Virus record (IMG/VR): IMGVR_UViG_3300021431_000003
Location: 64,001 to 128,000 of that record
Reading direction: 5' to 3' (one strand)
DNA: 64,000 bases
Origin: a virus
Taxonomy: Duplodnaviria; Caudoviricetes
Translations under genes and position numbers: made by a program
In this document: positions 7,301 through 60,174 of the stretch, piece after piece
Layout: every line of letters starts with the position of its first letter
Numbering within the stretch: position 1 is the stretch's first letter
Notes under the pieces: model-generated
Seen by the model: only the letters and a program-made list of their open reading frames with translations
Told to the model about the DNA's origin: nothing
Database searches by the model: none

Positions 7301-10300
7301 GGTCAGAACCATAACCAGAATCATTAGAATTATCCTTATCTCTACCGAGTCCAAAGAATCCTTTAACACCGCTCATTATTTTGGATGCAGTATTTTTAAT
7401 TCCTTGCCATAATCCACTTAATACACCACCATTAGATGCGGTAGCATTATTTGTTCCACTAGAAGAAAATGTAGTAGTACCATTACTAGAAGAACCAGTA
7501 TTATTTATCATAGTTGCAGTACTACTAGTATTACTTTTCGATTGAACTGCATTCATACCTGCAGCAAGAGATGCTGTAGCTAAAGAGAATGGTGCTTTAA
7601 CAACTCTGTTCATAGATTCTACAAAGTTGAATAGTCCACTCATAAATGGATTCTTCTTATCAAGTTCAATCTTCCAATAATTTTTACTTGTAGGCAAAAT
7701 AGACAGCTCATCAATTCCTCTATTGATAGAAGAGTTTTTGCTAGCTAAGCTCTTAAAGAATTCTTCAATCCCTTCAAACCCACCAGTTAGACTCTTGATA
7801 GAGTTATTGATTAGATTACCGAAATAAATACCTACTCTTTCTAATGGATTAGTATTCTTTAACCATCCAAAACCTCTCTCCAGACCCTTCATGAGAGGAT
7901 CTAGACTTCCAGTTAATGGACTAAGTTTATCGTTAGCATTTGCATTTGTAGCTACTCCATATTTGTCAATACCATCATATGATGTAGCAGCATCAAGAAC
8001 AGATTTTTCATCATACTTAGACATATCTACAGAATACTTAGAAGTATCAACACCTTCTATTTGTATTTTAGACATTTCATTTGTAGTGAAATATGCTGGC
8101 ATCATTGCGTCAAGAACAGCTTTAGTAATTTCAGCTTTCTTTCCACAGGGTTCAAATATTTCATTGATAATAGCACAAACACCAGCCATTGCTCTGATAA
8201 GTTTCCAATCAGAATGTTCTTCGTCTACATCAAATTGACTATTTGGGTCATCTTTACCAGAATTATATACGTCTTTAAGATGATGACTAGCATCCCATGG
8301 ACCAGTAAAGTTAGTAACATTGCTTGCTACTTCCTTTATTACGGATTCATCTTCAGCTACAAGAATAGCATTAAGATTAGAAATTACTTGAGTGCCTACT
8401 TCATTAAACTTGAATTTATTGGCATTAAGTTTTTCTTTACCCTTTAACTCATTACCATCTTCATCATATTGGTCAGAATAGTTGAAATCCTTTTCTCCAA
8501 AATACTGCCAAATAGATGAGAATATAGTAGAGAGCTTTTTGCGTACTTTATCACTCTTGCCTTTAGATTCAAGATTTGCTGTTTTTTCTAAGATTACACT
8601 CTTAGATGCTGAATCATAACCAAACATAGCTGACCATACATCTTTAGCACCATCACCAATCTTAGTAGTAATTGTCTTATTACCTATAAGATTATTATAG
8701 TCTTCGATACTAAGATTTGTATTATTCTTAGTATTATATGCTTCTACAGCAGCTTTAGCTTGAGCTCTTTCTTCTTTAATCTTAGACATGTCAATTCCAG
8801 GAATTAAGTCTAAAACATTAATAATCATTCCAACTAATGCATCTCTGATAGAATCAATAGAAATAATTAAAGTTGCAATAATACTAAGAGCTGCTAAAAC
8901 AGCACCTACGGCTGCAGCACCGCCGAATGATGCACCAGTTACAGCTTCAGCTAGTGTCATAATAACATCAGGAATTATATTAATAATACCACCAGTAAGT
9001 CTTTCTACAAAAGATGGTTTAGGTGTAACTATACCGAGTAGGTTTCTGCAATTATCTACACCAAGTAAGAAGTCTGCAACCATCATTACAATAGAAAGTA
9101 CGCTAGCAGCACCTTTAGCTGCAGCTGTAGAACCTTGTTTAGCGATATCATCAACACTATCGCCAATTACATCGCCAGTACCCTTAGCAACTTTTTCGGC
9201 TATTTCATCAGCATTTTCGTTTATACCTTTACCAAAAAGCTTAGCAATTTTTTCGTTCTTAAGAACCTTTGCTATCTTTTCTTTCATTTTACCTACAGAT
9301 TTTTTGATAAAATCAATAGCCTTTTCAAAGAAGTTTGCGTCTCCAGAGGCAATCTTTTCAGCAAGTTTATCAGCTTTCCACGCTTTCTTTGCAGCAGCCT
9401 TAGCAGCATCAGCTTCAGCTTTAGCTGCTTTTAATGCATTCTTTTCAGCAATCTTAGCAGCTGCAGCAGTCTCTCTATCAATCAATACCTGACCAATTTT
9501 AGAGAAAGCTCCATTTGTAATTTTATCTCCAACTTTACCAACGGCATTCATAGCAACACCGTGTATAGCAGCAATAGGTTTAGTTGCTTTTTCTGCAATA
9601 TTAGTAACACCTTCACCTAATCTACCGACTATCTTTGTTGGAGTAAATGGAATTTTCTTTAACGCTTTGAATGGAAGACCAAGAATCTTAGTTGCACCAG
9701 TCATGGCTTTAATACCCTTAGCTCCATTAAGAACTCCCATATTGCCTGCTCTTGCAGCAAGTCTTCCAACTAATCCAGCCATTTTACTTTCAGATGAACG
9801 TCCTACATAATCTGCATCTAATGCATTTGCATTTTCTAATGCCACTTGTTGTTGATAAGCAGCGTTTTCAGAAAGCGATTCATCTGCTAATTCATTATAT
9901 TCACTTAATGGAATATAACCACCATTACTATCAAGAGTATATGCCTTATTAGTTTTAGAATCTTTGAATATTTGTTGACCAGAAGCATTTGTTCCTATAT
10001 AATAATAATCTCCAGATATTTTAGAAGTTACTTGTTTACCAGTAGATTCATTAGTATATGTGCTAGTACCATCTTCATTCTTATTACCAGATATTTTATT
10101 ACCATTCTTACTAATAGCTTCACTTGGGAAGTTTATATTAGCAGAATATCCAGGAGATGTAAGTTGTACATTACCACCAACAGTGTTAGGTACGTCTATT
10201 GATGTTGCTTGTACATTTACTTGTTCTCCAGGAGATGTATCAGGAATTTGTATTTCTAATGCACCTTGTCTACCTTTAAATACATCCTTAGCATAATCTA

Positions 10301-13300
10301 CTAAACCTTGACCGACATTCTTAACAACTGTCCATACCATAGGAATAAGATTCTTACCTATACCATAAAGAACCTTTGGCACAAAGTCACCATATACAGT
10401 AACGAAACCAGTCTTCCAAAGTTCTACAATATGAGCTCCAACCTTAGCAAGGCTATTCCAGAATCCGCTAAGACCTCTATCTGGTGCAGCATATTCTCCT
10501 TCATTATGAATCCAATTATGAACCTTCTCAAATTTAGATTTAAAGAATTTTCTAATAGGATTAACGATACCAGAGATTATACCACCCTCATATTCACCAG
10601 TAGTTTTATTCTTGACACCAAAGATTTTATCTTTAGCTTTAGCAAGCCATGGCTTAACTTTTTCACGAATCGCAGGTAATATATCTTCTTTAATGAATCC
10701 TACTATTAATGGAACGAATACACCGCCAACAAATAGCCACTTGATAATCTTACCAATCTTAGAATCCTTCTTACCTTCAAAATTCTCTTTATCTTTTCTT
10801 AATTGTCTAGCATCCATTCTGTCGAAGAATCTACCGATAAAAGTATCCTGTTCTTGGTTCTTTTCTTTCCACGCTCTTACAGCATCAAGCTTACCTGCAA
10901 CAGCATTTCTAATACCAGATTTAAGAGTACCAGTAACAGATTTATATCTATCAGAACCTACTACTTTTTTAATAGCACCTCTCATAAATGTCTCTGTTAA
11001 AGAAGCTTTACCATAACCGTATCTAGCATAGAATCTACCATTAACTTTATTTTGTTCTTTAGCATCTAGTTCGTTGTATTTCTTACCATACAATTCAAGT
11101 GATAATTCATCAAGTCTTTCATCTTTATTCTTGATAGCAAGAGATATAACTTTATCTCTTTTAGCATCAGATGCCTTCTTTTTAATTTTTTCTTTAGTAT
11201 CATTAGCCCAGTCACTTACCTTAGCTGCAGCGGTTCTAATACCATTATTTATTTTATCTCTTACACCTTGAAGCTTAGATTGAACTCCATTTCTGATATT
11301 ATCAGAAATGCTATTCATAAGTTTCTGATATCTACCATCAATGAATCTTTCAACAAATACTGCATGAATTGCTTCTTGTTCTTTTTCAGTTAAGTCTTTC
11401 CAAAGAACATTATTTTCATGACCATTCTTACCAGCATATAGTTCTTTTACTAATTTCTGCAGTTCTGGACCTGCTTCTGGTTTAGCATCTTTATTATTAG
11501 AGTCAATTATAAATAACCTAGACCAAGCATATTCAGCTTTTCTCTTTAGATTCTCTCTGACTTTCTTCATTCTTTCTTCTTTAGTACCTTCAGCATTATC
11601 ATTAAATAAGATATTACCAGTACCTTTAATAAGTTTGATGGTTTGTCCTAGTTTACTTCTAACAAGACGTTTACCGATTTGCTTGATACCACCAATTATT
11701 CCACGACCGAATACTTGGTTTTCTTTCTTAGCTTGGATGTACATATTAACAAATTCATCATGAACTTGTTTTTGTTCATCCTTAGTACAAGCACTAAATC
11801 TACTTACACCAAGATTACATCTTTTTGTAATAGCATCAAGGAATTCAAACTTATCAGCTAATTCTTCTTTAAGCTTATTTTGAACCTCTTCGCTAGCTGT
11901 ATTAGCACTTCTTAGTGCTTCTAATGCAGATTGGTAAGAAGCTACTTCCTTATTCCATTCTTTTTCAGCTTCTTGTTGATATTGATAATTATTAAGTCGC
12001 TGAATCAAGGAATTATCATCAATCTTATGGTCACTTAAAGCAAGACCTACATTAAATCCTATCTTCTTTACACCTTTAATAGCACCACTGATAATAGACT
12101 TACCATGGGTTCTAATAGCATCCTTTACAAATAGAGAATGGATACCTGTAAATTTTGGTAAATCTGGCATAACAATAGGATTCATATATACACCAAGCTT
12201 AAGAGACTTAGCTATCATATCACCGAAAGACATGTAACTATCTTCTATAGTCTTTGGTCTATGGTCAGCAAGATAATCCTCTATGAATTGACGTTTAGCT
12301 GCATCATAAGATACAGGTTGACCTTTTCCAGGAATAACATTATAGCCGTCTACTTTATAATACATTTCAAAATTATAAGGAGTTTCTCCACGATAGATAA
12401 GAATCTTACGTTTCATTACCTTAATCTTCTTGACAGCTTCTTCTTCACTGCATTTTTCTTTATTCATTATCTTCTGCTTATATGTCTGAATATCATCTCT
12501 AATTCTTTCAGGAACACAGAGTTCTTTCAATGCGAGACCATCAAACATTTGACAAGCAGTATCAATTAATTCATTTATTTCATTATTAAGTACATTAGCC
12601 ATTCTAGTATCAGGAGCTAAATAACCCTTTAAGTCACCAGTAAGCATTGGAATATAATCATTCCAAAGGTCATTAGAAATAAAGTCACCCGCCTTAATAG
12701 AGTCTTTATTAATAGAACCTATCTTATCATTCTTACCAATAACATAACCACCATTAGCAGCATTTTCTTTAATAGCTTTTTGTGATCTAGAATCCTTTAC
12801 AGATTTAATATAAGCTTCTTTAGAACCATACTTAGCTTGTTCTTCTTTGGATAACTTGTCATATCCATTACCAATTGTTAAATCATAGTGGATGTTTTCA
12901 AGTATTTCTTCCATCCTTTTAGCTGCAGTATTTACAGTTTCAAGAGGAGAATCTTTACCCTTCCAGAAAGCTTTTTCTGCCTCAAAAGCAACTTCTTCAT
13001 CTGTAAGGCCTACACCTTTATGAGCTAATTCACGATTAGCCATAAGTTTAAGATTTCTAACAGCCTTCTTATCTCTAAGGTCTACATTAATACCCTTAGA
13101 TAATAAGTATTGCTGTACAGTCATCTTACTTCTCTCAATATCTTTATAATCTTTAGATGCTTTATTCATTTTATCTCTATGAAGTCTTAATTCCTTCATA
13201 ACAGATTTCTTAGTAGCATTATCGATGTTTCTAGTATTCAAGAATCTTTCAACATCTTTGTCTCTACCTTCTTTAAGCATCTTAATGATTCTTTTAGCAT

Positions 13301-16300
13301 CTTTACGGTCTAAATTATTTCTAAGCTCTTGACCTAATACATCATAAGAAGAGTTTACAAAATTATCAATCTCACCACTATTTTCGTCATAAGAAAGAAT
13401 ATTTAACAGAGATTCTATATCACCGCTAGTATAATCAGCAAGCTTTTCATCTATAGCAGACCATTGATCTGTTTTAGCCATTTTTAACTTACCTCTAGCA
13501 GCTAATCTCTGTCTTGCGGTCATATCATCTGCACGACCTCTTCTAATACGATTAGCCTTTAATCTACCACCAATACCTTCATCTCCAAGAAGTCTGAAAG
13601 GTTTAGTAGCTACACGACCAAGTCTACCAGCAATACCAATAGCACCGCTACCGATTTTACCAGCTTTTTCAAAGACGCCTCCAAGAAAATTATTTCCAGC
13701 TGCATTAGCTCTAATCTTCTTGAATATATCTAATGTGAAATCCTTGATATCAACAATTGTATTTGTTAATTCTTTAAAGATAGATTGAGCACCAGAAGTC
13801 ATAGGAGTTATTATATTATCACGAATAGCTCCGAATAATCCTCCTTCTCTCTTGGCATCTTCTCCATCACCATTCTTTTTACCAAAGATTTCATCCATTG
13901 TCTTATCTATAATTGTTTGTCCGAAACCCTTTAAAGGTTTAACAATATTATCATTTAATGCTCCTCTTACACCACCTCTACGTTTACCATTCTCACCTTC
14001 TTCACCAAGTAAGAAGTCTTTGAATTTATCAGTAGAAGTGACATATCCTGCAGTAGCACCAATAAGTGCACTACCAACAAGACCAAAAGGACCAGGGAGG
14101 AATAATGCTGCTGTAGCTGCACCAATTCCCATATTTTTAGCACCCTTCTTGAGTTTGTCTACATTCTTATCAGAGAATATACCACCCTCACCAAAGAGTG
14201 ACCCTTGGAAGATTTCAGAATTCTTTGCGAATCCTAAGCCTGTACCGATTAATAAACCACCTAATGGACCAAGAGGAGTTAATAAGCCAGCTGCCATACC
14301 AGCCATACCACCCTTAGCCATATCAGGAGCAGCTTTTTGAAGTTCTTTAGAGATTAAACCAGTATCTTTTCTCTTAGGATTACCATTAGAATCGACAATG
14401 ATTTCACCAGTTTTCTTATCCTTTTCTACATCACCAAATAAGAAGCTAGCAAAAGAACCAGTAGATTTGGTTAAAGTAGAAGCAGCACCTACTGCTGCAC
14501 CAAGTAATGGACCGCCAACTAATAAGCCAGCTACACCGCCTAATACACCTCTAGATGCCATATTACCTAAGAAAGCAGCTCTCTGTTTATCATCTTCAAG
14601 AGTTGTCCAATCAGTAAGTTTATTAATGTCAACCTGCTGAATTCTTTCTTTAGCCTCAGCATCTAACTGTTGATGCTGAGCTAATTCTTCTGCTGTTAAA
14701 CCATCATTAGCTTCAGCATTATATCTAAGACCTCTAATGAAGTTCTTTTCATTACGAGATTGAAGATTTCTTACAGATGTAGGAGCTGGGTTATAAACTA
14801 CACCACCCTTAGGAATAGTATAGATACCAGTCTGACCAATCTTAGAACCGTTAAGATATTCACCTGCAGAAAGTACAGACTGGAATGGACGACCAGTTCT
14901 ATTTACACCACCTGCAGCCATACCTCTTACATTTATTGTAGAGGCTTTAATACTAGCTAATTTCCTTTCAGCTTTTTCAAGTTTAGTTCTTAAATCATTT
15001 TCTAATCCAGGATTGCTAGCAAATAAAGGAGCTTGACCAGCTAATTGATTTCTTAATCTAATGACTTCAGCTTCAGCTTTAATTATAGCAGCTTGTTTTC
15101 TTACATTTGCTTCTTCAGAAGTTCTTACACTTATATTTTGACCTTCGTTAGAATGAGTCCTAATATAATTCAATCTGTCCATTGCATTTGCAGAAATATG
15201 CTGATTATAATCATATACGTCAGTACTTGCTTTAGATGCTATTTCAGCTCTTCTTAAAGCTCTTTTTTGTGCAGATGTTAACGATGGTGTTGGTGAAGGA
15301 GAAGGATTGCTACTAGAAGATTCTGGATTAGTTATTTTACCAGCTAATCTCTTAGCCTCATCAATTTCCTTTTTCCACATAGCATGTACATCATCTGCAT
15401 TCTTTGCCATACCTTTACGGAATCCAGCTGTAAAATGAGAGAGTAAACCTTCTTCTAAGATATTACCTTCAGAGTCCACATCACCAAAGATTTTATTTTT
15501 GATTTTGTCTACATGAGGCTTTATTTTTTCATTATAATAGTCCTTAACTGGACTCAAAAGTTCTCCAATTTGTTCTTGAACCTTTTTGAAGAATTTTTGA
15601 GTGTGTTCTTTCATTAATTGCCAGAGAGACTTTTTCTGGTCATCAGCTTTCAAATCTTCACCATAAATAAGATTACGTAACCAAGCATCTGTCTTTACAA
15701 TAGTACCAGTTACTTTATCCATAACAGCAAAGTTAGTCTTCTGAGTAAACCATTTAGCTGCAATAGCAAGTTTCTCTGTAGTACCAGTAGCTTTAGATAA
15801 GTTCTCCATTAAGCCCTTATCTTTATCATATTTATCAGTGGCTCTCTTAAGCTTATCAGTATTTTCTTTACCAATAAGCTCTTCCATTTTCTTCCACTTT
15901 TCTTTTTCTTTCTTAGCATCCTCTCTCTGCTGATTCAGTTTGAACTCAGATTCATACTGTGCACCTTCACCATAGTAATCTGATACAAGACGAGATATAC
16001 CAATCTGGTCACCTTCAGATTGATAATTATAAGAGTCAGTAATAAAGCTAACAGACTTGCCCTTTCTACGTGCCTGCTCCTCCACTCTCTTTATATTAGA
16101 TTCAAAGCTTTCTTTAGCTTTTTCTTTAGCTTTTCTTTCAAGCTGTTCATAATATCTAGATGTATACTTTTCATCAGTAGTGCCATTATATTTTACTATA
16201 GCACCATTTTCATATAGTATATCATTGAAATTAATTGGACTTGGTGGGTTTGGTCCACTATTGTTTACATTAAAAATAGAAAGATTTCTAAGATAAGAAG

Positions 16301-18218
16301 AATATGCTCTGATAGTATTAAGACTGCTTCCCATACTTCTAAGATATTGATATAGTGTAACGCCATATTCGTCTTTAGCTCTTAAAAGAACCTGAGCAGT
16401 AGGCATTTCTTGAATATGTCTTTCATTCATATCACCCTTAGCATCTACATAGCTCTTACCATGATATGACTTAGCATCTCCAGTAATACCTTCCATAGCA
16501 GCGAGCATTGCAATACCGCCTTGCTCATTAAGCTGCTTAATGGCACTATTCTGACTTCTAAGAATTTCAAGTAGTTGTCCATCAACTGCAGATATATCTG
16601 GACCACTGAATCCTTTTCTCATCTTAAGTCTTCCATTATCATCTTTTACATAACGAAGACGTTCACTGTGTTGGAAAATCTTCTTCATAGATGTGTAGAT
16701 AGCTTTTTCTGCAGTGGTCAAATCAGATTCTCTAAGAGAACCAAAATCGCCTGCAGCTTGAAGCTTAAGAGCAAGAGATTGGACTGCTGTATTAGCTCTA
16801 TCATATTCTTCTTTAGTAGCATACATAGAGTCAAAACTTCTATTAGTACCAGCTTGAATAGTGCCCTTGATAAGAGATTCTGTACCACGTTGAGCAGATG
16901 TAGTGATACTATCATATGCCTTCTTAGCAGATTTCATACTAGTCCATCTACCAGTAGTGTAATCAAATATCATTTCTTCGCCACCTGTCATAGCAGATGT
17001 CATTTTACGAAGATAATAAGGGATTACATCTATAATAGCCTTCTTAGTAATACCATCAAAAGGAATAGCACCCTTTACATATTTATTAGGGTCTACAGAT
17101 TCATTAGAACCAGTCTTAATTCCAAGAATCTTACCTAATAGACCAGCTAAACCAGCATCTTCTTTCTTTGCTGCAGCATTAGCTTTAGCAATAAGAGAAG
17201 GAACAAGATTTTCAAGAGTCTTATTAAGAGCCTTTGCTGCTTGGTCAAATCCTTTACCAAGTGCTTTATTAACAGCAGCCTTAGATAATTCTCTACCAGG
17301 GTTAGCAAGCATTGTAGCAAGTAAGTTAGCACCTTCAATGCCACCATCGCCAAATAACATATTGAGACCTGGGATAGCCTGCATTAATTCATTACTAGCA
17401 TTTCTTCCTATATACTTACCATATTCTCTAAGATTAATTACACCACCTCTACCGATGATATCATCATATCCTATCTTTTTTTTCTTATTAGGATCTTCAA
17501 TTTGTTTAGCATATAAATTACGCTGCATTTCGAGTAACTCATCCATCTGTTTAGTGAGTTTAGCAACGTTATTATCTACATTAGCCATAAACTTGTTGAG
17601 ATTTTCATTCATCTGGTTCTGTACTTTTGCAGTCTGCTCTGCATTCTGTTTTAAGAAACCAGTGATGTTTTGTAATCCACCATCAAGTTTATTTATAAGA
17701 CGTTCATTTTGAGTATACAGTAGCATTGTATTCTCTTTAGAAACATCCATCTGAGCTTTGCCAGTTTTGACGATAGCTTCTGTAGTAATAGCGGTCTGTA
17801 ACTTACTGTTCTTTTTAACAGCAGTAGCAATAACCTTATCACCATCAGTAACATCTTCATTACCGAAATCAAAGTCATCATCATCGATGTCCATACCTTG
17901 CATTAGGTTACCGCCATATTTATTCATAACTTCCAGCTCTTTATTCTTAGCATAGAAGTCACCAGTAGTAACACTATATACAATAGAATCAAAGCCAACT
18001 CTAGCAGCATCCATTACTTTATTATCAGTAATAGTCTTCTTAATTCTAGCATAAGTAGTTCTATAATCTTTAATAGAATGATATGCTTCTTTAAAGACTT
18101 CTTGATTCTCATTCTTAAAGTCTTTAACATAGGTAAACTTCTCAGACAATACATCTGCAGTAGTATAAGCAACCGATTTGCCTAAGTTAGCAAGATACTT
18201 TTGAACCTTAATAGACAT
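4338..18218 (-). CDS. Giant tape-measure-like virion protein with C39-like peptidase, phage tail lysozyme and NlpC/P60-like domains
   Basis: 4626 aa, largely helical, Gly-zipper/TM segments; SGCGPASAASVL...HYVVARG (C39-like), AAACGAIGNWVQE...GGGLMQWT (Phage_lysozyme2-like), DCSGMMSAV...GDIRF...GHTDMY (NlpC/P60-like). Confidence 0.8.
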   Translation of the reverse strand: MSIKVQKYLANLGKSVAYTTADVLSEKFTYVKDFKNENQEVFKEAYHSIKDYRTTYARIKKTITDNKVMDAARVGFDSIVYSVTTGDFYAKNKELEVMNKYGGNLMQGMDIDDDDFDFGNEDVTDGDKVIATAVKKNSKLQTAITTEAIVKTGKAQMDVSKENTMLLYTQNERLINKLDGGLQNITGFLKQNAEQTAKVQNQMNENLNKFMANVDNNVAKLTKQMDELLEMQRNLYAKQIEDPNKKKKIGYDDIIGRGGVINLREYGKYIGRNASNELMQAIPGLNMLFGDGGIEGANLLATMLANPGRELSKAAVNKALGKGFDQAAKALNKTLENLVPSLIAKANAAAKKEDAGLAGLLGKILGIKTGSNESVDPNKYVKGAIPFDGITKKAIIDVIPYYLRKMTSAMTGGEEMIFDYTTGRWTSMKSAKKAYDSITTSAQRGTESLIKGTIQAGTNRSFDSMYATKEEYDRANTAVQSLALKLQAAGDFGSLRESDLTTAEKAIYTSMKKIFQHSERLRYVKDDNGRLKMRKGFSGPDISAVDGQLLEILRSQNSAIKQLNEQGGIAMLAAMEGITGDAKSYHGKSYVDAKGDMNERHIQEMPTAQVLLRAKDEYGVTLYQYLRSMGSSLNTIRAYSSYLRNLSIFNVNNSGPNPPSPINFNDILYENGAIVKYNGTTDEKYTSRYYEQLERKAKEKAKESFESNIKRVEEQARRKGKSVSFITDSYNYQSEGDQIGISRLVSDYYGEGAQYESEFKLNQQREDAKKEKEKWKKMEELIGKENTDKLKRATDKYDKDKGLMENLSKATGTTEKLAIAAKWFTQKTNFAVMDKVTGTIVKTDAWLRNLIYGEDLKADDQKKSLWQLMKEHTQKFFKKVQEQIGELLSPVKDYYNEKIKPHVDKIKNKIFGDVDSEGNILEEGLLSHFTAGFRKGMAKNADDVHAMWKKEIDEAKRLAGKITNPESSSSNPSPSPTPSLTSAQKRALRRAEIASKASTDVYDYNQHISANAMDRLNYIRTHSNEGQNISVRTSEEANVRKQAAIIKAEAEVIRLRNQLAGQAPLFASNPGLENDLRTKLEKAERKLASIKASTINVRGMAAGGVNRTGRPFQSVLSAGEYLNGSKIGQTGIYTIPKGGVVYNPAPTSVRNLQSRNEKNFIRGLRYNAEANDGLTAEELAQHQQLDAEAKERIQQVDINKLTDWTTLEDDKQRAAFLGNMASRGVLGGVAGLLVGGPLLGAAVGAASTLTKSTGSFASFLFGDVEKDKKTGEIIVDSNGNPKRKDTGLISKELQKAAPDMAKGGMAGMAAGLLTPLGPLGGLLIGTGLGFAKNSEIFQGSLFGEGGIFSDKNVDKLKKGAKNMGIGAATAALFLPGPFGLVGSALIGATAGYVTSTDKFKDFLLGEEGENGKRRGGVRGALNDNIVKPLKGFGQTIIDKTMDEIFGKKNGDGEDAKREGGLFGAIRDNIITPMTSGAQSIFKELTNTIVDIKDFTLDIFKKIRANAAGNNFLGGVFEKAGKIGSGAIGIAGRLGRVATKPFRLLGDEGIGGRLKANRIRRGRADDMTARQRLAARGKLKMAKTDQWSAIDEKLADYTSGDIESLLNILSYDENSGEIDNFVNSSYDVLGQELRNNLDRKDAKRIIKMLKEGRDKDVERFLNTRNIDNATKKSVMKELRLHRDKMNKASKDYKDIERSKMTVQQYLLSKGINVDLRDKKAVRNLKLMANRELAHKGVGLTDEEVAFEAEKAFWKGKDSPLETVNTAAKRMEEILENIHYDLTIGNGYDKLSKEEQAKYGSKEAYIKSVKDSRSQKAIKENAANGGYVIGKNDKIGSINKDSIKAGDFISNDLWNDYIPMLTGDLKGYLAPDTRMANVLNNEINELIDTACQMFDGLALKELCVPERIRDDIQTYKQKIMNKEKCSEEEAVKKIKVMKRKILIYRGETPYNFEMYYKVDGYNVIPGKGQPVSYDAAKRQFIEDYLADHRPKTIEDSYMSFGDMIAKSLKLGVYMNPIVMPDLPKFTGIHSLFVKDAIRTHGKSIISGAIKGVKKIGFNVGLALSDHKIDDNSLIQRLNNYQYQQEAEKEWNKEVASYQSALEALRSANTASEEVQNKLKEELADKFEFLDAITKRCNLGVSRFSACTKDEQKQVHDEFVNMYIQAKKENQVFGRGIIGGIKQIGKRLVRSKLGQTIKLIKGTGNILFNDNAEGTKEERMKKVRENLKRKAEYAWSRLFIIDSNNKDAKPEAGPELQKLVKELYAGKNGHENNVLWKDLTEKEQEAIHAVFVERFIDGRYQKLMNSISDNIRNGVQSKLQGVRDKINNGIRTAAAKVSDWANDTKEKIKKKASDAKRDKVISLAIKNKDERLDELSLELYGKKYNELDAKEQNKVNGRFYARYGYGKASLTETFMRGAIKKVVGSDRYKSVTGTLKSGIRNAVAGKLDAVRAWKEKNQEQDTFIGRFFDRMDARQLRKDKENFEGKKDSKIGKIIKWLFVGGVFVPLIVGFIKEDILPAIREKVKPWLAKAKDKIFGVKNKTTGEYEGGIISGIVNPIRKFFKSKFEKVHNWIHNEGEYAAPDRGLSGFWNSLAKVGAHIVELWKTGFVTVYGDFVPKVLYGIGKNLIPMVWTVVKNVGQGLVDYAKDVFKGRQGALEIQIPDTSPGEQVNVQATSIDVPNTVGGNVQLTSPGYSANINFPSEAISKNGNKISGNKNEDGTSTYTNESTGKQVTSKISGDYYYIGTNASGQQIFKDSKTNKAYTLDSNGGYIPLSEYNELADESLSENAAYQQQVALENANALDADYVGRSSESKMAGLVGRLAARAGNMGVLNGAKGIKAMTGATKILGLPFKALKKIPFTPTKIVGRLGEGVTNIAEKATKPIAAIHGVAMNAVGKVGDKITNGAFSKIGQVLIDRETAAAAKIAEKNALKAAKAEADAAKAAAKKAWKADKLAEKIASGDANFFEKAIDFIKKSVGKMKEKIAKVLKNEKIAKLFGKGINENADEIAEKVAKGTGDVIGDSVDDIAKQGSTAAAKGAASVLSIVMMVADFLLGVDNCRNLLGIVTPKPSFVERLTGGIINIIPDVIMTLAEAVTGASFGGAAAVGAVLAALSIIATLIISIDSIRDALVGMIINVLDLIPGIDMSKIKEERAQAKAAVEAYNTKNNTNLSIEDYNNLIGNKTITTKIGDGAKDVWSAMFGYDSASKSVILEKTANLESKGKSDKVRKKLSTIFSSIWQYFGEKDFNYSDQYDEDGNELKGKEKLNANKFKFNEVGTQVISNLNAILVAEDESVIKEVASNVTNFTGPWDASHHLKDVYNSGKDDPNSQFDVDEEHSDWKLIRAMAGVCAIINEIFEPCGKKAEITKAVLDAMMPAYFTTNEMSKIQIEGVDTSKYSVDMSKYDEKSVLDAATSYDGIDKYGVATNANANDKLSPLTGSLDPLMKGLERGFGWLKNTNPLERVGIYFGNLINNSIKSLTGGFEGIEEFFKSLASKNSSINRGIDELSILPTSKNYWKIELDKKNPFMSGLFNFVESMNRVVKAPFSLATASLAAGMNAVQSKSNTSSTATMINNTGSSSNGTTTFSSSGTNNATASNGGVLSGLWQGIKNTASKIMSGVKGFFGLGRDKDNSNDSGYGSDPYHIYQRAYSGSYRTAGDSESQTIADSGCGPASAASVLRMYGKNGDMRNAVNYALNNKYKEVNGGTYPEYFNSYLNKNGIKTNSNANNADVINSLAQGKPVILMGRDSQNSGRTPYGSKYSHYVVARGLDKNGNVIVEDSEDRRGSTRYSLADTLQNSTVRITTGRGKNNESLANKYISSVSAVTNSTISSMIYNAAKSLGVNFSSSSNNTTNNNDSTGVNVRGDAKAAIGKSYTATLEGESVTLTMDEGGAEIYSFLVNECGCSTAAACGAIGNWVQECGGGTIENIKPVALKGYIAEGGGLMQWTLPWNDHPAWARAHGFSDWEWTGQLAHVKEELTDGSNWSKNRIKKAASQIRSMGFNVANTVDEYKKLTKPDEAAVNFERGLEGSADFWGSVAASEAYKNIKYKHLYCFKRRLFALAVYGLVTGQSSSGSGRGVNEDKLSITGRAKDPINFANSGEIERQEKLAEIGQDNLWTAGVPVDNTTQNTNTNDKIIDSNKFISIDKLKSISETTKEDTTATDSTTSTSTDNNKGVATGLIGLLGEYTRRATKDIFGNFYDALYGTETNNNTTPSDTTAAYNGNDIIYAAAMVFEALYNADPDLTYDCNCVKYNDLVCRDGTVLEHERPDCSGMMSAVIHYMGYYTSRWNAEKNYSDTYHGEGFGTQNWNNASSNTCIYDKDGNLSSDWEVLKFDPNDVQPGDIRFHSGHGHTDMYVFTNSKGTRFGFNAGSGDAGGSIGNGMYNSYCLAKYYLDNNNQLPNPDSCHGNRGEPGAWTIQDNECKLVLRYKGSGNGRFGRGSARNGKTDLAKLNRIPISKRKITDSNTIPNIVTRDVNRDLITGAYRTGYGRGTGPLKSLDDIRSSRVVRSSNNTNAHNNTIVSPHTGKGSIMGADNNTYTQYGGDNLANIIRLAAIIADNSNKIDDILAVLATIAVNTENTTTAIDNSNNKKIPNGSKNGLSALRTALNNNNSGEDIINAIYQIAKS

Positions 18219-51047: not shown

Positions 51048-52073
51048 TTATCGTCTTACCATTACTACCTTAATAGCACTTGTGATTTCTGTATCAGTAT
51101 GAAGAGTAATCTTCTTGCTTTCTGGATTATAGCTCCACTTAATATCACTAGGAACACCTTCTGTAGTGACATTTGTTTTTTGTGTACTATCCTTCTTAGC
51201 AATGATTTCGTCATACTTGTAATCAGATTCAGTTGCTTCAGATGTACCAAGTACGTGCAATTCGAATACACGGTTTTCATGATAATCTTCTACAAGCTTA
51301 GGAATGAGTACTTCTGCATCGATTGTTGTATCTGCTGCATTAACAGTAATCTCATCAGAAATCCACATATAAGTACCCCAAGGATTCTTACCACAGAGCA
51401 GAGTTTCAAAGATTTCAGAGATAGTCATACCCTTAAGAGAATCTCCTTCTTTAAATCCACCTATAGGATATTTAACAGTAGAATTCAATACAGTTTTGCC
51501 ATCTACAGTTTCACAAGCATAATCATCTTCTTCTACTCCATCCTTAGGATATAACATAAGGCACATAAGTTGAGCAAATGTAAGCTTGCGGAATTTAGTA
51601 CCCTTCTTAATGCCACCTACAGATACAGTAGTACCATTTTCAGATAAATCTCTAAAGATATCTGCATCAGCGATATGCATAAGAATATGATTAAGTTCAC
51701 ACTTAGTCACATATCTATTGTCTTCTTCCCAATGCATAGGATGAATACATCTATCGTGCGGTGGGGGAGGTGGAGGACAAGGTTTAGGCGGTGGGCATTT
51801 ACGTCCAGGAACAAAATAAGTATTTGGTACTGGATTAGGCTGTGCATCACCATAACCGTCTACATAATAATCTGGTCTATATGGACCAGGAGTAGGTTTA
51901 TCAGAGTAAGGTCTATTGATAACTTCTGGTCTCCTGAAATATTCTCTTGGATTTGGAGCAGGCTTTGGTGGTGGAGGACAAGGGCAACAACTATCATCCA
52001 CACCAGGAACCAATTCAGGTTTATCATTATCAATGAAGACACTCTCAAATTCATCATAGAAATCGTTAGCCAT
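51048..52073 (-). CDS. Pro/Cys-rich late protein with two GG-motif repeats
   Basis: CCPCPPPPKP, CPPPKPCPPPPPPH; VGGIKKGT..LMLYP and IGGFKEGD..TLLCG. Confidence 0.75.
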   Translation of the reverse strand: MANDFYDEFESVFIDNDKPELVPGVDDSCCPCPPPPKPAPNPREYFRRPEVINRPYSDKPTPGPYRPDYYVDGYGDAQPNPVPNTYFVPGRKCPPPKPCPPPPPPHDRCIHPMHWEEDNRYVTKCELNHILMHIADADIFRDLSENGTTVSVGGIKKGTKFRKLTFAQLMCLMLYPKDGVEEDDYACETVDGKTVLNSTVKYPIGGFKEGDSLKGMTISEIFETLLCGKNPWGTYMWISDEITVNAADTTIDAEVLIPKLVEDYHENRVFELHVLGTSEATESDYKYDEIIAKKDSTQKTNVTTEGVPSDIKWSYNPESKKITLHTDTEITSAIKVVMVRR

Positions 52074-53433: not shown

Positions 53434-54084
53434 CCTCCTTTATCCAATCCATTGAACTGTAGCATTTGTTGCTCCCCAAGGAGCACCAGGTATACTTCCT
53501 TCTGGTTTATTTATAGTAATAGATGTAAGAGCTGCACCACCAAATGCACTATAACCAATACTAGTTACACTACTAGGTATAGTAATAGATGTAAGAGATG
53601 TGCAACCAGCGAATGCACTACTACCAATACTAGTTACACCATCAGATATAGTAATAGATGTAAGAGATGTACAACTAGCAAATGCACCATCACTAATACT
53701 AGTTACACTACCAGGTATAGTAATAGATATAAGAGATGAACAACCACTAAATACACCACTACTACCAATACTAGTTACACTATCAGGTATAGTAATAGAT
53801 GTAAGAGATGTACAATTAGCAAATGCACCATTACCAATACTAGTTACACTATCAGGTATAGTAATAGATGTAAGGGATGCATAATAACTAAATGCACCCT
53901 CACCAATACTAGTTATACCATTAGGTATAGTAATAGATGACACATTTCTAGAAATAATACTTTCTAATATCATATATCTAACGCCTCCTTTATCCAATCC
54001 ATTGAACTGTAGCATTTGTTGCTCCCCAAGGAGCACCAGGTATACTTCCTTCTGGTTTATTTATAGTAATAGATGTAAGAGCTG
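53434..54084. repeat. Exact 101-bp direct repeat (53434-53534 = 53984-54084)
   Basis: Identical C-terminal cap, stop codon and downstream RBS of both LRR genes. Confidence 0.95.
53440..53973 (-). CDS. BspA-type leucine-rich repeat protein (LRR_5), ~6 repeats
   Basis: [21 protein letters not shown] repeats; start moved to 53973 after AAAGGAGG. Confidence 0.88.
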
Positions 54085-56530
54085 TACAATCACTAAATGC
54101 ACGACTACCAATACTAGTTACATTATTAGGTATAGTAATAGATGTAAGAGATGTTTTTCTAAATGCATAATCGCCAATACTAGTTACACTATCAGGTATA
54201 GTAATAGATATAAGAGATGTACAAACATCAAATGCACCCTTACCAATACTAGTTATACCATCGGGCATAGTAATAGATGCAAGAGATGTACAATTATAAA
54301 ATACATAATCACTAATACTAGTTACACCATCGGGTATAGTAATAGATGTAAGAGATGCACAACCAGAAAATGCATTTCTACCAATACTAGTTACACTATC
54401 AGGTATAGTAATAGATGTAAGAGATGTACAATTAGAAATTGCATAACTACCAATACTAGTTACACCATCAGATATAGTAATAGATGTAAGAGATCTACAA
54501 CCAGCAAATGCACCATCTCCAATATTAGTTATACTACTAGGTATAGTAATAGATGTAATAGTTCTTTCTATATATTCTTTTAGATGATCCATATCAAATT
54601 TTATAGAAAAAATGTTTTCTGTAATAAAATTATATACACCATTAGCAGTAGGTACTTGTCTATCGGTACTATTATCATTTATTGTTGTAGTAACATCTTC
54701 ATTATGAATTAATATATTAGTGGCACCCCAAGGATAACCAGTTCTAGATTTATAGTTTTCGAGTAAAAGTATATCACAATGATTAAATGCACCATCACCA
54801 ATACTAGTTACACTATCAGGTATAGTAATAGATGTAAGAGATCTACAACCAGCGAATGCAGTACCACCAATACTAGTTACACCATCATGTATAGTAATAG
54901 ATGTAAGAGATGCACAACCACCAAATGCACCGTTACCAATACTAGTTACACTACCAGGTATAGTAATAGATGTAAGAGATGAACAACCACTAAATGCACC
55001 GCCACCAATACTAGTTACACCATCAGATATAGTAATAGATGTAAGAGATCTACAACCAGTAAATGCAGCATCAGCAATACTAGTTACACTACTAGGTATA
55101 GTAATATATGCAAGAGATGCACAACTAGAAAATGCAGTAGCACCAATACTAGTTACACTACTAGGTATAATAATAGATGCAAGAGATGTACAACCAGCAA
55201 ATGTATTATAACCAATACTAGTTATACCATTAGATATAGTAATAGATTTAAGAGATGTACAATTAAGAAATGCAGCATTACCAATACTAGTTACCTTATT
55301 AGGTATAGTAATAGATGTAAGGGATGTACAATAACTAAATGTATTACTACCGATACTAGTTACACTATCAGGTATAGTAATATATTTAAGAGACGTACAA
55401 TTAAAAAATACACCATCACTAATACTAGTTACACCATCAGGTATAGTAATAGATTTAAGAGATGCACAATAATTAAATGCACCAGCACTAATACTAGTTA
55501 TACTTGTATTAGATCCTATAATAACATGTTTAAGAGTATCTGTACTATCTATAAAAGTTTTAGTGTCAGCAATTGTTGTAAATGTATATAATTCAGGATC
55601 ACCTTCACACATTACATTTATTTTAGTATCATCTAAACTGCTACTAATAGAAGATAATGCATTATATACAGCTTTTGCGGTAGGCACTTGTCTATCTGTA
55701 TTGCTATCATTTATTGTTGTAGTAACATTTTCGTTATGAATCATTATACTATGAGCATCCCAAGGATAACCAGTTCTAGATTTATAGTTATCGAGTAAAA
55801 GTATATCACAATTAGTAAATGCACTATCGGCAATACTAGTTACACTACTAGGTATAGTAATAGATGTAAGAGATTTACAACCACTAAATGCATATTTACC
55901 AATACTAGTTACACTACTAGGTATAGCAATAAATGCAAGAGATGTACAACCATCAAATGTATTATCACCAATACTAGTTATACTACTATTAGGTATAGCA
56001 ATAGATGCAAGAGATGTACAACCACTAAATGTACTACTACCGATACTAGTTACACTATCAGGTATATTAATAGATGTAAGAGATGTACAACTAGCAAATG
56101 CACCATCACCAATACTAGTTACACCACTAGGTATAGTAATAGATGTAAGAGATGTGCAACCATCAAATGCATAATTACCAATACTAGTTACACTACTAGG
56201 TATAGTAATAGATGTAAGAGACGTACAATTTTGAAATGCCCAATTATAAATACTAGTTACACCACTAGGTATAGTAATAGATGTAAGAGATGTACAACCA
56301 CTAAATGTACTACTACCAATACTAGTTACACCATTAGGTATAGTAATAGATGTAAGAGATGTACAATTAGCAAATGCATTATTACCAATATTAGTAGTTA
56401 CACTACTAGGCATAGTAATATATTTAAGAGATGTGCAACTAACAAATGCTGCTATACCAATACTAGTTACACTATCAGGTATATTAATAGATGTAAGAGA
56501 TGTACAATTACTAAATGCACCAACATCAAT
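53520..56530 (-). repeat. ~35 coding tandem repeats of 69 bp in four blocks
   Basis: Recurrent CCAATACTAGTTACAC...GGTATAGTAATAGATGTAAGAGATG...AAATGCA on the + strand. Confidence 0.95.
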
Positions 56531-56884
56531 AACAGTTACACCAGCATTAGATCCTATAATAACACTTTTTGGTTTATTATTAGAATTAATATAAGTTTTT
56601 GTATCATATAATGTATCAAACTTATGCAATGTTATTTCATCGTCTATTACATTTATTTTTGTTTCATCAATTTTAAGTGGCTCTACTTCAATATGACACC
56701 ATTGTTCGCCATTATAATAGTATACTGAACCTACACTGATTGTAGTTTCATCTACTTCTTTTTCTGAAATTAATATACACGTTCTACCTATGAATAAATT
56801 AGAGTCAGGTAATGTATTAACTTTTTCTGGGGAAGCTAATTTGATTTCATTTCCCTGAAAATCTAAATGTGTATTAATTTTCAT
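53990..56884 (-). CDS. Tail-fibre/receptor-binding protein with three BspA-type LRR_5 blocks (~11+11+7 repeats)
   Basis: 23-aa repeats; inter-block caps YKSRTGYPW and VPTAKAVYN-type fibre motif; N-terminus like the 52092-53426 protein. Confidence 0.88.
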
Positions 56885-56905: not shown

Positions 56906-57463
56906 TTAATTATTAGAGAATGGGTCATTAATAACATACTCCTCGTATCCAGATAAGTTACATTCACAATGCTGATATGGAGATACTGGTTCTGGACACT
57001 GAGGCACAAAATCAGGAATCATACCATCAAAACACTTTACAGGCTTAATAGAAATAATATTTTCAATACCAATTCTAAGAAGCTTGCTTTCATATGCATC
57101 GGAGTAGTCTACAATAATTGCAGTTACGTCAATCATATGAGGTTTATCAATGAGCTTTTCAATACCCTTAGAGCATTCAAAGTCAATGATTCTTGCAGCA
57201 AAAGTGCAAACTCCACGAGTCTGACTAACTGCTTTAATCTCATAAGTTTCATTCTCATGAATGTCAAATGTCTGTACGTGACCATGACAATCCACATAAC
57301 GAACAGATAATACTGTTCTTCCTACAATACCAACTTTGCCATGATAATGTGGATGACAATGATGGTGAGGAGGGCATGGATGAGGTGGTGGACAAGGCCC
57401 AGGACCGCAATTATAATCATCAAAATGTGGTACATTCTGATAGTAATAAACAGGCTTCTTCAT
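56906..57463 (-). CDS. Cys/Pro/His-rich late protein
   Basis: CGPGPCPPPHPCPPHHHCHPHYH; AAAGGAGG RBS; late promoter 57492-57503. Confidence 0.78.
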   Translation of the reverse strand: MKKPVYYYQNVPHFDDYNCGPGPCPPPHPCPPHHHCHPHYHGKVGIVGRTVLSVRYVDCHGHVQTFDIHENETYEIKAVSQTRGVCTFAARIIDFECSKGIEKLIDKPHMIDVTAIIVDYSDAYESKLLRIGIENIISIKPVKCFDGMIPDFVPQCPEPVSPYQHCECNLSGYEEYVINDPFSNN

Positions 57464-57491: not shown

Positions 57492-57535
57492 TATATGTAT
57501 GTTTTGTTAGAATAGATAGGTGGAACTTTATAATA
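57492..57535. promoter_or_regulatory. Divergent late-type promoters
   Basis: AACAtacataTAa (-, 57492-57503) and AACTttataaTAa (+, 57524-57535). Confidence 0.65.
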
Positions 57536-57561
57536 AAATGCTCAAAAGGAGGTATTCTCAT

Positions 57562-59397
57562 ATGCTTATTGACCAAGCTAAATTTATATATGACTTTACT
57601 ACACCAGATGTAGAAGTAACAACAGAAAGTGCTTTATTAAATGAAGCAGCATCTACTTCGGAACGTTTTAAAACTGAAGTACTTGATGTAGATAAGTTTA
57701 TTAAGAATAATATGCTTAAAGAAGTATCTAATCCTGTATTCTTTAATGGTCCAACTCCAACAGAAGATGGATTGTTAAGTAATGAAATCTTTGGTATTAC
57801 TAAAACTGAACGTGCTGGTATTTATGCTTATATTAATCTAGGTGGTCAGTTTATTCAACCGTTAATTTATAAGACATTACTTAAACTCAATGGCAAAATT
57901 GCAGATGTAGTAAATGGTACAGATTATTTTATCATTAATGATAAAGGAGAACTTATACAGAGCGATGATGGTGATACTGGTATTGATTGGTTAAAGAAAA
58001 ACTTCTCTAAGATTAAATTTAAGAAGAATGAATCTGCATCTAGAAATAAGAGAATTGACTTTATTGAGAAAGTAAAAAATAAGATGTGGGTAGATAAGTG
58101 GATTGTTATTCCAGCTTATTATAGAGACGTAGATACTAGAGATGCTGGTATCGGTGTAGGTGAAATCAATAAACTCTATAGTAGCTTGATAATGGCTACA
58201 AAAGCACTTAAGGAAACATCTGGTTATGGACTTACATTAAGCGATGTTACTAAAGCAAGAGTACAGAATATCTTAGTACAGATTTTTGATTGGTTTGGTA
58301 ATGGTACTACTATTAATGGGCAAGAAACTCCAGCTAACTTACCTGGTAAGATGGGTCTTATTAAACGTGGTACATTATATAAGACTATTGACTATTCTGC
58401 TCGTCTAGTTATGTCTGCTCCTGATGTAAGTGGAGAAGATATAGATGACTTGATGATTGACATGGATCATTGTGCATTACCACTTGCTGCAGCACTTTGT
58501 TGTTTCAAACCATTTGTCATGTTCTGGTTAAGACGTTTCTTTGAAAATCAGTTTGCTGGTAAATTAGAGTATCCTATTATGATTAATGATAAAGAATCTA
58601 TCATGATACCTCTAGTAGATTATCAAATTGCATTTTCTGATATAGAGATTGATAAACAGATTGAACGTTTTATTCATGGTTATAGTAACCGTTTTATTCC
58701 TATTGAAATTCCAGTAGATAAAGAAGAGTTTGCTAGACGTTCTAAGAATAAGGAATATAAAGATTCTGTAACTGGTAAAGAAATGAAACTCAATCAGATT
58801 AATTTCTATATGTATTTTACTGGATATAAACTTAATAATTCTGAAGAATATAAAGAGAATAAGCAAGAATATTCTGAGACACTTAAAGTAAGAAGACGTA
58901 TTACTTGGTGTGACCTATTTTACTTAGCAGCATGTGATATTACATCTGATAAAATGTGTCTTGTAACTCGTTTCCCTATTGACTCTTATCTTAACCAGTA
59001 TCCTACTAAAGTAAGAATTAAGTCTACTGTAAAGACCGCTCCTATGGTTACTCAGATAGGATTTGAGGATAACATGAAACTCTATAAGTGGTATCCTGTT
59101 ATTGAAGATACTGATATTAACTCTAATACATCTCCAGTATTTGAAGACACACTTTCTATTAGTAATGGTCTTATCGAAGCAATGGGTATGGACTATGATG
59201 GTGATACAGCAATTGTTAAACCAGTGTACACAATTGAGGCTAATCAGGAATGTGAAAAACAGGCTAATGCAAAGATTCAGGTTCTTGGTATGAATGGCTT
59301 CACAACTAGAGGTGTATCAAAAGAAAACATTCTTTGTTTATATGAACTTACTATTCATCCAGATAAGAGTGTTAAGTTTGTTAATCCAGAGTTTTAA
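57562..59397 (+). CDS. RNA polymerase beta' subunit, N-terminal catalytic part (probably virion RNAP)
   Basis: DGLLSNEIFG, VIPAYYR, GKMGLIKRGTLYKTIDYSARLVM, VTRFP, catalytic GMDYDGD; start moved to 57562 after AAAAGGAGG. Confidence 0.9.
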   Translation: MLIDQAKFIYDFTTPDVEVTTESALLNEAASTSERFKTEVLDVDKFIKNNMLKEVSNPVFFNGPTPTEDGLLSNEIFGITKTERAGIYAYINLGGQFIQPLIYKTLLKLNGKIADVVNGTDYFIINDKGELIQSDDGDTGIDWLKKNFSKIKFKKNESASRNKRIDFIEKVKNKMWVDKWIVIPAYYRDVDTRDAGIGVGEINKLYSSLIMATKALKETSGYGLTLSDVTKARVQNILVQIFDWFGNGTTINGQETPANLPGKMGLIKRGTLYKTIDYSARLVMSAPDVSGEDIDDLMIDMDHCALPLAAALCCFKPFVMFWLRRFFENQFAGKLEYPIMINDKESIMIPLVDYQIAFSDIEIDKQIERFIHGYSNRFIPIEIPVDKEEFARRSKNKEYKDSVTGKEMKLNQINFYMYFTGYKLNNSEEYKENKQEYSETLKVRRRITWCDLFYLAACDITSDKMCLVTRFPIDSYLNQYPTKVRIKSTVKTAPMVTQIGFEDNMKLYKWYPVIEDTDINSNTSPVFEDTLSISNGLIEAMGMDYDGDTAIVKPVYTIEANQECEKQANAKIQVLGMNGFTTRGVSKENILCLYELTIHPDKSVKFVNPEF

Positions 59398-59402
59398 AAT
59401 TG

Positions 59403-59417
59403 TATATCATAATAACG
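59403..59417 (+). promoter_or_regulatory. Early-type promoter
   Basis: TATATCATAATAACG. Confidence 0.5.
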
Positions 59418-59664
59418 ATGAGAGTAAATTTATCTATACTATCATCGTATAGCCTTCAACTCTCATCCATACTATCCGAAAGGAGGTGTTAGTATGGGTG
59501 AAGGAATCGGAGGCGGCATTGGATTTTAATAAATCGAAGAGAATCCTGGCAAATGCAAATTTACCGAAATATATATGAAAGGATGAGATATATGAAACGA
59601 ATATAATAACTTTATAATTTCGAAAGTAAAACCCACACGCCGATGAGCGTGTGGGTTATTTTTT
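59417..59664 (+). other. Structured transcript with minigenes MGEGIGGGIGF* (59494-59529) and MKRI* (59592-59606)
   Basis: GAAAGGAGGTG and GAAAGGA RBSs; 5' hairpins; terminator 59629-59657. Confidence 0.55.
59629..59657. terminator. Bidirectional terminator
   Basis: AACCCACACGC-cgatga-GCGTGTGGGTT + T tract. Confidence 0.85.
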
Positions 59665-59667
59665 ATA

Positions 59668-60174
59668 TTATTCATCGTCACCTTCATAATAAGGTGCATC
59701 GCTGAACTTATCTTCATCTTCAGGGTCTTCTTGAATAAACTCCTCATTCTGTTCACCAGTAGGTTCTGTAACAGTTGGAACCTCTTCTACAGGCTGTTCG
59801 ACAACAGCGGTCTTCTTAGAGGACTTCTTCTTAGAAGAGGTGGTTGTGGTAGTTACAGTTTCTTCCTTAATCTTCTCTACACGAGCAGTATTGTTTCTCT
59901 CATCTTCAGCGATACCCTTATTGATTTCAATATCGTTGAGCTGAGCAGTATAAGAACGAAGTACTTCCTTGAAATTATCTGCAGTAAGTCTAACCTTAGT
60001 ACCATTATTTTTTTCCAGAGTAACGATAGCATAACAAGAAAGACACTGAGCAATTTCAGAAGCATTCATCTTCTTACGAATTCTAGCATAACGTTGAATA
60101 GTTGGTCTAATGGTAACAACAGGATAATTCTTAGTCTCTACAATTACCATGAACTTAGTTACATTAATAGCCAT
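59668..60174 (-). CDS. Hypothetical protein with low-complexity acidic C-terminus
   Basis: GGAGGA RBS, 168 aa, third gene of a late operon. Confidence 0.8.
   Translation of the reverse strand: MAINVTKFMVIVETKNYPVVTIRPTIQRYARIRKKMNASEIAQCLSCYAIVTLEKNNGTKVRLTADNFKEVLRSYTAQLNDIEINKGIAEDERNNTARVEKIKEETVTTTTTSSKKKSSKKTAVVEQPVEEVPTVTEPTGEQNEEFIQEDPEDEDKFSDAPYYEGDDE

Follow-up and report, generated by a model that had tools for sequence, protein, structure and literature searches.

A predicted 11-residue early peptide gene of a jumbo phage and its whole-gene copies in CRISPR arrays and chromosomal cassettes of Ruminococcus-type bacteria

Superinfection exclusion and immunity genes, such as T4 Imm, lambda SieB and P22 SieA, encode proteins of the membrane or periplasm that range from tens to hundreds of residues in length and spread by lysogeny, and their prophage copies protect the hosts. 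Lambda bar minigenes and the CreT RNA toxin combine a strong ribosome-binding site (RBS) with a very short open reading frame (ORF) of 2-8 codons and act via rare codons, CreT being located in loci of short palindromic repeats that are clustered and regularly interspaced (CRISPR) (PMC2490762, PMC12737573). The two-polymerase genomes of AR9/PBS1 and phiKZ carry early transcription units with promoters for the virion RNA polymerase, and the AR9 early consensus has a G at +1 six bases downstream (PMC5312081). Type VI-D CRISPR arrays stand beside cas13d, cas1 and cas2, with 36-nt repeats, spacers of about 30 nt and WYL genes nearby (PMC5935466). Here we analyzed a stretch of 64,000 nucleotides (the window), positions 64,001 to 128,000 of IMG/VR record IMGVR_UViG_3300021431_000003, a complete virus record of 223,528 bases from an AR9/phiKZ-like gut jumbo phage. 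It contains a small predicted early unit whose putative core is an 11-codon micropeptide gene, near-copies of which occur as oversize CRISPR spacers in a Ruminococcus genome. The parts of the unit are as follows.

59398..59417, + strand: predicted early promoter of the virion RNA polymerase type (motif 59398-59410, 6 nt, then the G at 59417 as predicted start site)
59417..59467, + strand: 5' leader, whose 5' strand pairs locally (with 59437-59446) or over long range (with 59459-59467)
59459..59474, + strand: anti-start strand, which can bury the AUG region 59490-59501 (minimum free energy fold)
59472..59521, + strand: stretch recovered, from the RBS on, as sense oversize spacers (identity 40/40, 40/40 and 48/50 nt)
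59478..59488, + strand: near-perfect Shine-Dalgarno sequence
59494..59529, + strand: 11-codon micropeptide gene, the putative functional core (33 distinct members, coding selection)
59577..59606, + strand: second RBS (59577-59587) and 4-codon minigene (59592-59606), accessory and lineage-restricted
59630..59664, no strand assigned: bidirectional intrinsic terminator (hairpin 59630-59657 plus T-run)

The promoter, the 11-codon ORF (59494-59529), both RBSs, the 4-codon ORF and the terminator, all predicted in an initial annotation made from the letters alone, are present where that annotation had placed them. The promoter agrees with the AR9 early consensus in sequence, spacing and +1 G, so that the unit is by these features a predicted AR9-type early transcription unit; its motif occurs 14 times genome-wide, against 2 for the reversed control, and is retained 5' of nearly all family members. 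A scan for sigma-70 sites found no enrichment and no good site at this unit, a search for tRNA and tmRNA found none, and Rfam at gathering and relaxed thresholds returned only terminator-driven chance matches and no family.

Relatives were collected with the neighboring polymerase gene as anchor and by two further searches, yielding 33 distinct family members. Every one of the 33 loci at which polymerase identity was 54% or more carried the unit, and 8 of 34 loci at 40-54% did; the close members form one clade, the distant ones are scattered, and peptide variants track phage clades. Family ORFs encode acidic, Gly-rich peptides of 9-22 aa with the motif M-(F)-[GD]-[DE]-x(2-4)-hydrophobic-G, started by ATG, GTG or TTG, and the peptides of the near clade are typically 9-16 aa long with 42% Gly and 18% Asp/Glu. 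The unit is not the decayed remnant of a longer gene, an outcome that the initial annotation had allowed for, since all 33 members stop after 9-22 codons. In 18 close members, third positions accounted for 44 of the 58 minority cells of the six-codon core (permutation p about 1e-4, uncorrected for kinship), and pN/pS was 0.15 in frame and 0.08 over the first four codons, against 0.9-1.4 in the other two forward frames. The detection rule gave a single match in the whole genome and none outside the slot in 670 kb; no second copy was found in the phage's own genome, and the motif was absent from longer phage proteins. Codons ending in C are shifted towards host usage, and the reading frame is retained while both leader and tail are free to change. 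Given the coding selection and the retained ORF, the selected product is, as far as sequence can tell, the peptide and not the RNA, and the alignments document a stand-alone early gene for a predicted cytoplasmic peptide of 11 residues. The regulated micropeptide proposed initially is supported by an ORF that is present in all close relatives with only synonymous changes at its core, and also by host copies that keep RBS, ORF and stop while dropping the leader. This family escapes standard gene callers, and a literature search turned up no description of such a peptide gene.

Host copies were sought in a scan of bacterial genomes, and the figures given here cover the matches listed, most of which are chance matches. 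A metagenome-assembled genome (MAG) of Ruminococcus sp. UBA7013 contains two type VI-D arrays, one of them beside viperin, cas13d, cas1 and cas2. Cas13d was identified by NF038189 at 858 bits, and Cas13d, Cas1, Cas2 and a 36-nt repeat with a conserved 3' end together mark a type VI-D locus, in which a prokaryotic viperin gene lies directly upstream of cas13d-cas1-cas2 and the array (L149 369-6388). Among the 29 spacers of the two arrays, 23 measure 25-34 nt and six measure 53-130 nt, and five of these six (54-130 nt) are complete RBS-ORF-stop genes in translatable sense. Three are near-copies of the window gene. Over their first 30 nt they agree with the window at every position (30/30), while all other spacers reach 17-24 and shuffles 17-22, and these three are the only UBA7013 spacers that match the 223-kb phage genome above shuffles, all on the same 50-nt gene; one 18-nt protospacer match for a standard spacer is probably due to chance. 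The other two oversize sense spacers (L149 5882-6011, L160 448-532) encode a second, related type of acidic, Cys-containing 10-mer with its own RBS, for which no source phage was found in IMG/VR. At L160 705-797, it is the first base of the following repeat, non-consensus there, that completes a captured gene's stop codon.

The conserved 3' end of the Cas13d repeat gives the array direction (10.1101/314401), from which it follows that the captured genes lie in the sense of the precursor RNA; a purine test of array direction was weak (16/22, p 0.05). Since Cas13d requires spacer-complementary RNA (PMC8209922), such sense spacers cannot guide it to the peptide mRNA. With lengths of 54-130 nt and the same sense as the mRNA, the five gene-spacers are, on sequence grounds, not targeting spacers. 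The UBA7013 locus thus shares its gene order, repeat length, standard spacer length and nearby WYL genes with described type VI-D arrays, but differs from them in holding five spacers that are whole sense-strand genes, for which a literature search found no precedent.

Besides spacers, family genes occur in three genomes of another Ruminococcus-type genus, as chromosomal cassettes in which the gene lies between a host-type promoter and a terminator; two of these cassettes occupy a slot behind spoIIID that is filled by other cargo in relatives. One cassette (G494) has a canonical host -35/-10 promoter that is common to unrelated cargo. When six host copies were folded, their starts opened at 5-10 kcal/mol, against 18.6 kcal/mol in the window, and the inhibitory leader was absent from all host copies tested; the three near-copy spacers, none of which starts before the anti-start strand has ended, open at 6-10 kcal/mol. 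By sequence, the gene has been taken over whole by Ruminococcus repeatedly, via two routes, spacers and cassettes. The spoIIID slot itself (L154 600-1200, L334 1360-1590, L326, L327, L332) shows variable cargo in a small Ruminococcus clade, with repeated promoter/terminator modules and different small genes per species in an integron-like layout; none of the other cargo matched the phage.

The leader was proposed initially to act like a switch. Its helices are present as described, with long arms at 59417-59425 / 59459-59467 and inner arms at 59434-59439 / 59447-59452, and the anti-start strand 59463-59474 does pair with 59490-59501. The region folds much better than shuffles (z -5.85), with a start-buried fold at -35.4 kcal/mol; when the AUG is forced open, the long helix is the best fold at -26.8 kcal/mol, which lies 8.6 kcal/mol above the start-buried fold, so that both conformations exist computationally. 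A 5' hairpin at +1 is a general feature of early transcripts in this phage, shown by 71% of 21 and by 17% of shuffles, and the cost of opening the window's start, 18.6 against 13.1 kcal/mol, is alone not significant (p about 0.1). The nearest clade has a strong start-burying helix, both strands of which have changed in 10 close relatives, as judged from each sequence's own fold, whereas the anti-start strand is missing from most distant members. The switch-like leader could therefore be upheld for the nearest clade, where the helix is strong and changes are two-sided, but not family-wide: a riboswitch-like leader common to the family was rejected, as pairing of the start was seen in 30% of members and in 24% of control genes. 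In several relatives (L020-L022, L054, L024, L032), additional short ORFs upstream, part of which overlap with the start of the peptide gene, stand in for the start-burying helix, and others (L026, L027, L031, L120) carry an anti-RBS sequence within a hairpin loop.

The unit occupies a gap of 270 bases between two genes.

57520..59397, + strand: beta' subunit of the probable virion RNA polymerase, N-terminal part (catalytic DxDGD motif; phrog_2986; matches annotated virion-associated beta')
59668..60174, - strand: convergent 168-aa gene, neighbor of the peptide unit, function not assigned

The beta' gene did not match the solved non-virion enzymes, whereas a second DxDGD gene of the genome matches the AR9 non-virion RNA polymerase (7S00/7S01), and for this reason the former most likely encodes the virion enzyme, in a jumbo phage of AR9/phiKZ-like kind. 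The 168-aa gene had no family match and no match in cultured phages. Some relatives have the unit inverted or relocated inside the same gene cluster, and neither inversion nor a polymerase gene located elsewhere separates it from the 168-aa gene or its cluster. No such peptide gene was found behind the polymerase gene in the cultured phages Goe21, BpSp, LPJP1, SA1 and JD-Fnp4. Near the same polymerase gene, the Bacillus phages Goe21 (L114 5540-6060) and BpSp (L115 5310-5790) have a long early leader with a shared hairpin, an RBS and a short ORF that is not of this peptide family. 3' of the polymerase gene at L110, L067 and L079-L082, a promoter and RBS precede other short ORFs outside the family rule, namely an acidic 17-mer, two 14-19-mers and a 5-mer. 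Elsewhere in the window, we observed BspA-type leucine-rich-repeat proteins (PF13306) at 53440-56884 (-), an ORF of 4,626 aa at 4338-18218 (-), and Pro/Cys/His-rich tracts in proteins at 51048-52073 and 56906-57463 (-). The only radical SAM gene of the genome lies 40 kb from the peptide unit.

The explanation that we favor, at a probability of roughly 45%, is that the peptide restrains the phage's own early machinery, through superinfection exclusion or feedback, and that hosts express it for immunity. An injected virion RNA polymerase would make a transcript of about 250 nt at once, and the leader would fold open first and bury the start later, allowing a limited burst of peptide in this clade. 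The peptide could serve as a short linear binding motif, with an acidic start and a hydrophobic residue plus Gly, that binds and damps a phage component at work from the outset of infection; the virion RNA polymerase or another ejected protein would be the first candidates. The phage would benefit by blocking a second, related phage or by ending its own earliest phase, while a host that makes the peptide beforehand, from CRISPR precursor RNA or from a chromosomal cassette without the inhibitory leader, could block the incoming phage; hosts would collect several variants, as these track phage clades. A phage target would be the simplest one, since the gene is kept both by lytic phages and by hosts, and the hosts shed the translational brake. 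That Cas1-Cas2 and CRISPR arrays, together with a chromosomal cargo slot, capture and express phage micro-genes as peptide immunity, with the 11-residue peptide shutting the jumbo phage's earliest step, is a proposal we hold slightly more tentatively. As proposed, an early product of the phage would block related phages to the advantage of a host expressing it, which is the logic of superinfection-exclusion genes, and the peptide gene may work like one. Unlike Imm, SieB and SieA, it would be a soluble 11-mer from a jumbo phage that appears to be lytic, taken up by hosts as spacers and cassettes, a size and route of spread without precedent in the literature search. Several points weigh against this explanation. 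The CRISPR evidence comes from one MAG, which holds all five gene-spacers, two spacers share their 5' end and 44 nt, so that independent events may be fewer, and capture is rare (at least 4 genomes among about 600 searched). Processing shortens mature Cas13d guides to 20-30 nt (PMC5935466) and would thereby cut the gene, leaving precursor RNA as the necessary template for translation. The promoters of two cassettes are also similar to the phage early promoter, as would fit an infection-triggered toxin, and the linkage of the unit is to a gene cluster rather than strictly to the polymerase gene.

The resemblance of those two promoters leads to an unlikely but serious competitor, a host-takeover factor that binds a host protein, such as a pocket of RNA polymerase, a protease or a chaperone, with the host copies as an infection-triggered abortive device. 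Cassettes would then be fired by the phage polymerase, and spacers would be translated once Cas13d is disabled, in a logic like that of CreTA/CrePA. Takeover genes are typically early, the leader in the phage can restrict translation, and Cas13d binding would normally cover the RBS, all of which would suit this idea; but the G494 promoter is of the host type shared with unrelated cargo, the host copies lack translational repression, and the rapid clade-specific turnover would fit a phage partner better than a conserved host pocket. Distant members may bear a loose resemblance to the sigma-A region 3.2 finger or to Clp docking loops, which would also suit it; likeness to the sigma finger, the ClpX loop, the GroES loop and the DnaJ G/F region was set aside, as the motif holds too little information for a test. 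It is rather improbable that the host copies are by-products, abundant ribosome-protected early RNA being preferentially captured while the peptide has another role, e.g., as an assembly cofactor. Speaking for it are spacer ends that fall on RBS and stop, as those of a protected fragment might, and the 5' end common to two spacers. Against it, Cas1 is not fused to a reverse transcriptase, and three intact-frame chromosomal cassettes behind host promoters would be unaccounted for. No reverse transcriptase was found in the UBA7013 MAG, which is incomplete and may miss one; as it stands, capture from abundant RNA is unsupported and selection after capture is implied.

Still less probable is an arbitrium-like signal, with a phage receptor reading the mature peptide to enter a carrier or dormant state and hosts faking the signal. 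It would explain a benefit to both sides and the clade-specific variants, which short phage peptides of the AimP/RRNPP type also have, and the acidic-hydrophobic-Gly pattern and the size resemble RRNPP-type pheromones. In contrast to AimP/RRNPP, the whole ORF is an acidic 11-mer without a signal peptide or secretion precursor, the neighbors are the polymerase and the 168-aa gene rather than a receptor, the phage is apparently not temperate, and a search of the genome for a single TPR family, TPR_12, found no such domain. The RNA-level options raised initially, a ribosome/tRNA sink or a structured noncoding RNA with decoy RBSs (including a CsrA sponge), are very improbable. In their favor are the very strong RBS, the over-use of the Gly codon GGA (53% against 27% in the phage), and the 4-codon ORF, which by its RBS, length of at most 8 codons and rare last codon fits a bar-type toxic minigene; this ORF occurs in 3 of 33 members only, all close phages (the window, L015, L016), and the second RBS stands without an ORF in two members. 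The main ORF departs from them in its three-base periodicity and in its length, as peptidyl-tRNA drop-off decreases when minigenes grow from 2 to 8 codons (PMC2490762) and the family has 9-22. A bar-type toxic minigene was therefore rejected for the main ORF, whose residues are fixed while third positions and the end vary, with no conserved rare codon before the stop. Unlike CreT, moreover, the captured gene lies within the array itself, as a spacer. The sink is thus unsupported for a host-carried ORF of common codons, and the noncoding RNA is unsupported by a varying leader and tail, a kept frame and the lack of an Rfam match. A CsrA sponge was discarded, no CsrA being found in five host genomes. 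Two further candidates were dropped, a type I toxin of the small hydrophobic kind, as the near-clade peptides are Gly-rich, acidic and typically 9-16 aa long, with no transmembrane helix, and a ribosomally synthesized and post-translationally modified peptide precursor, as no maturation enzymes are adjacent.

Even if the host copies were inert, the spacers would point to Ruminococcus as the host of this uncultured phage clade. If the favored explanation is true, CRISPR arrays could store coding genes that act as peptides, beyond guides, and the earliest phase of jumbo phages would contain an 11-residue control point that lacks annotation, which bears on what limits the virion RNA polymerase phase and on the means by which lytic jumbo phages exclude one another.
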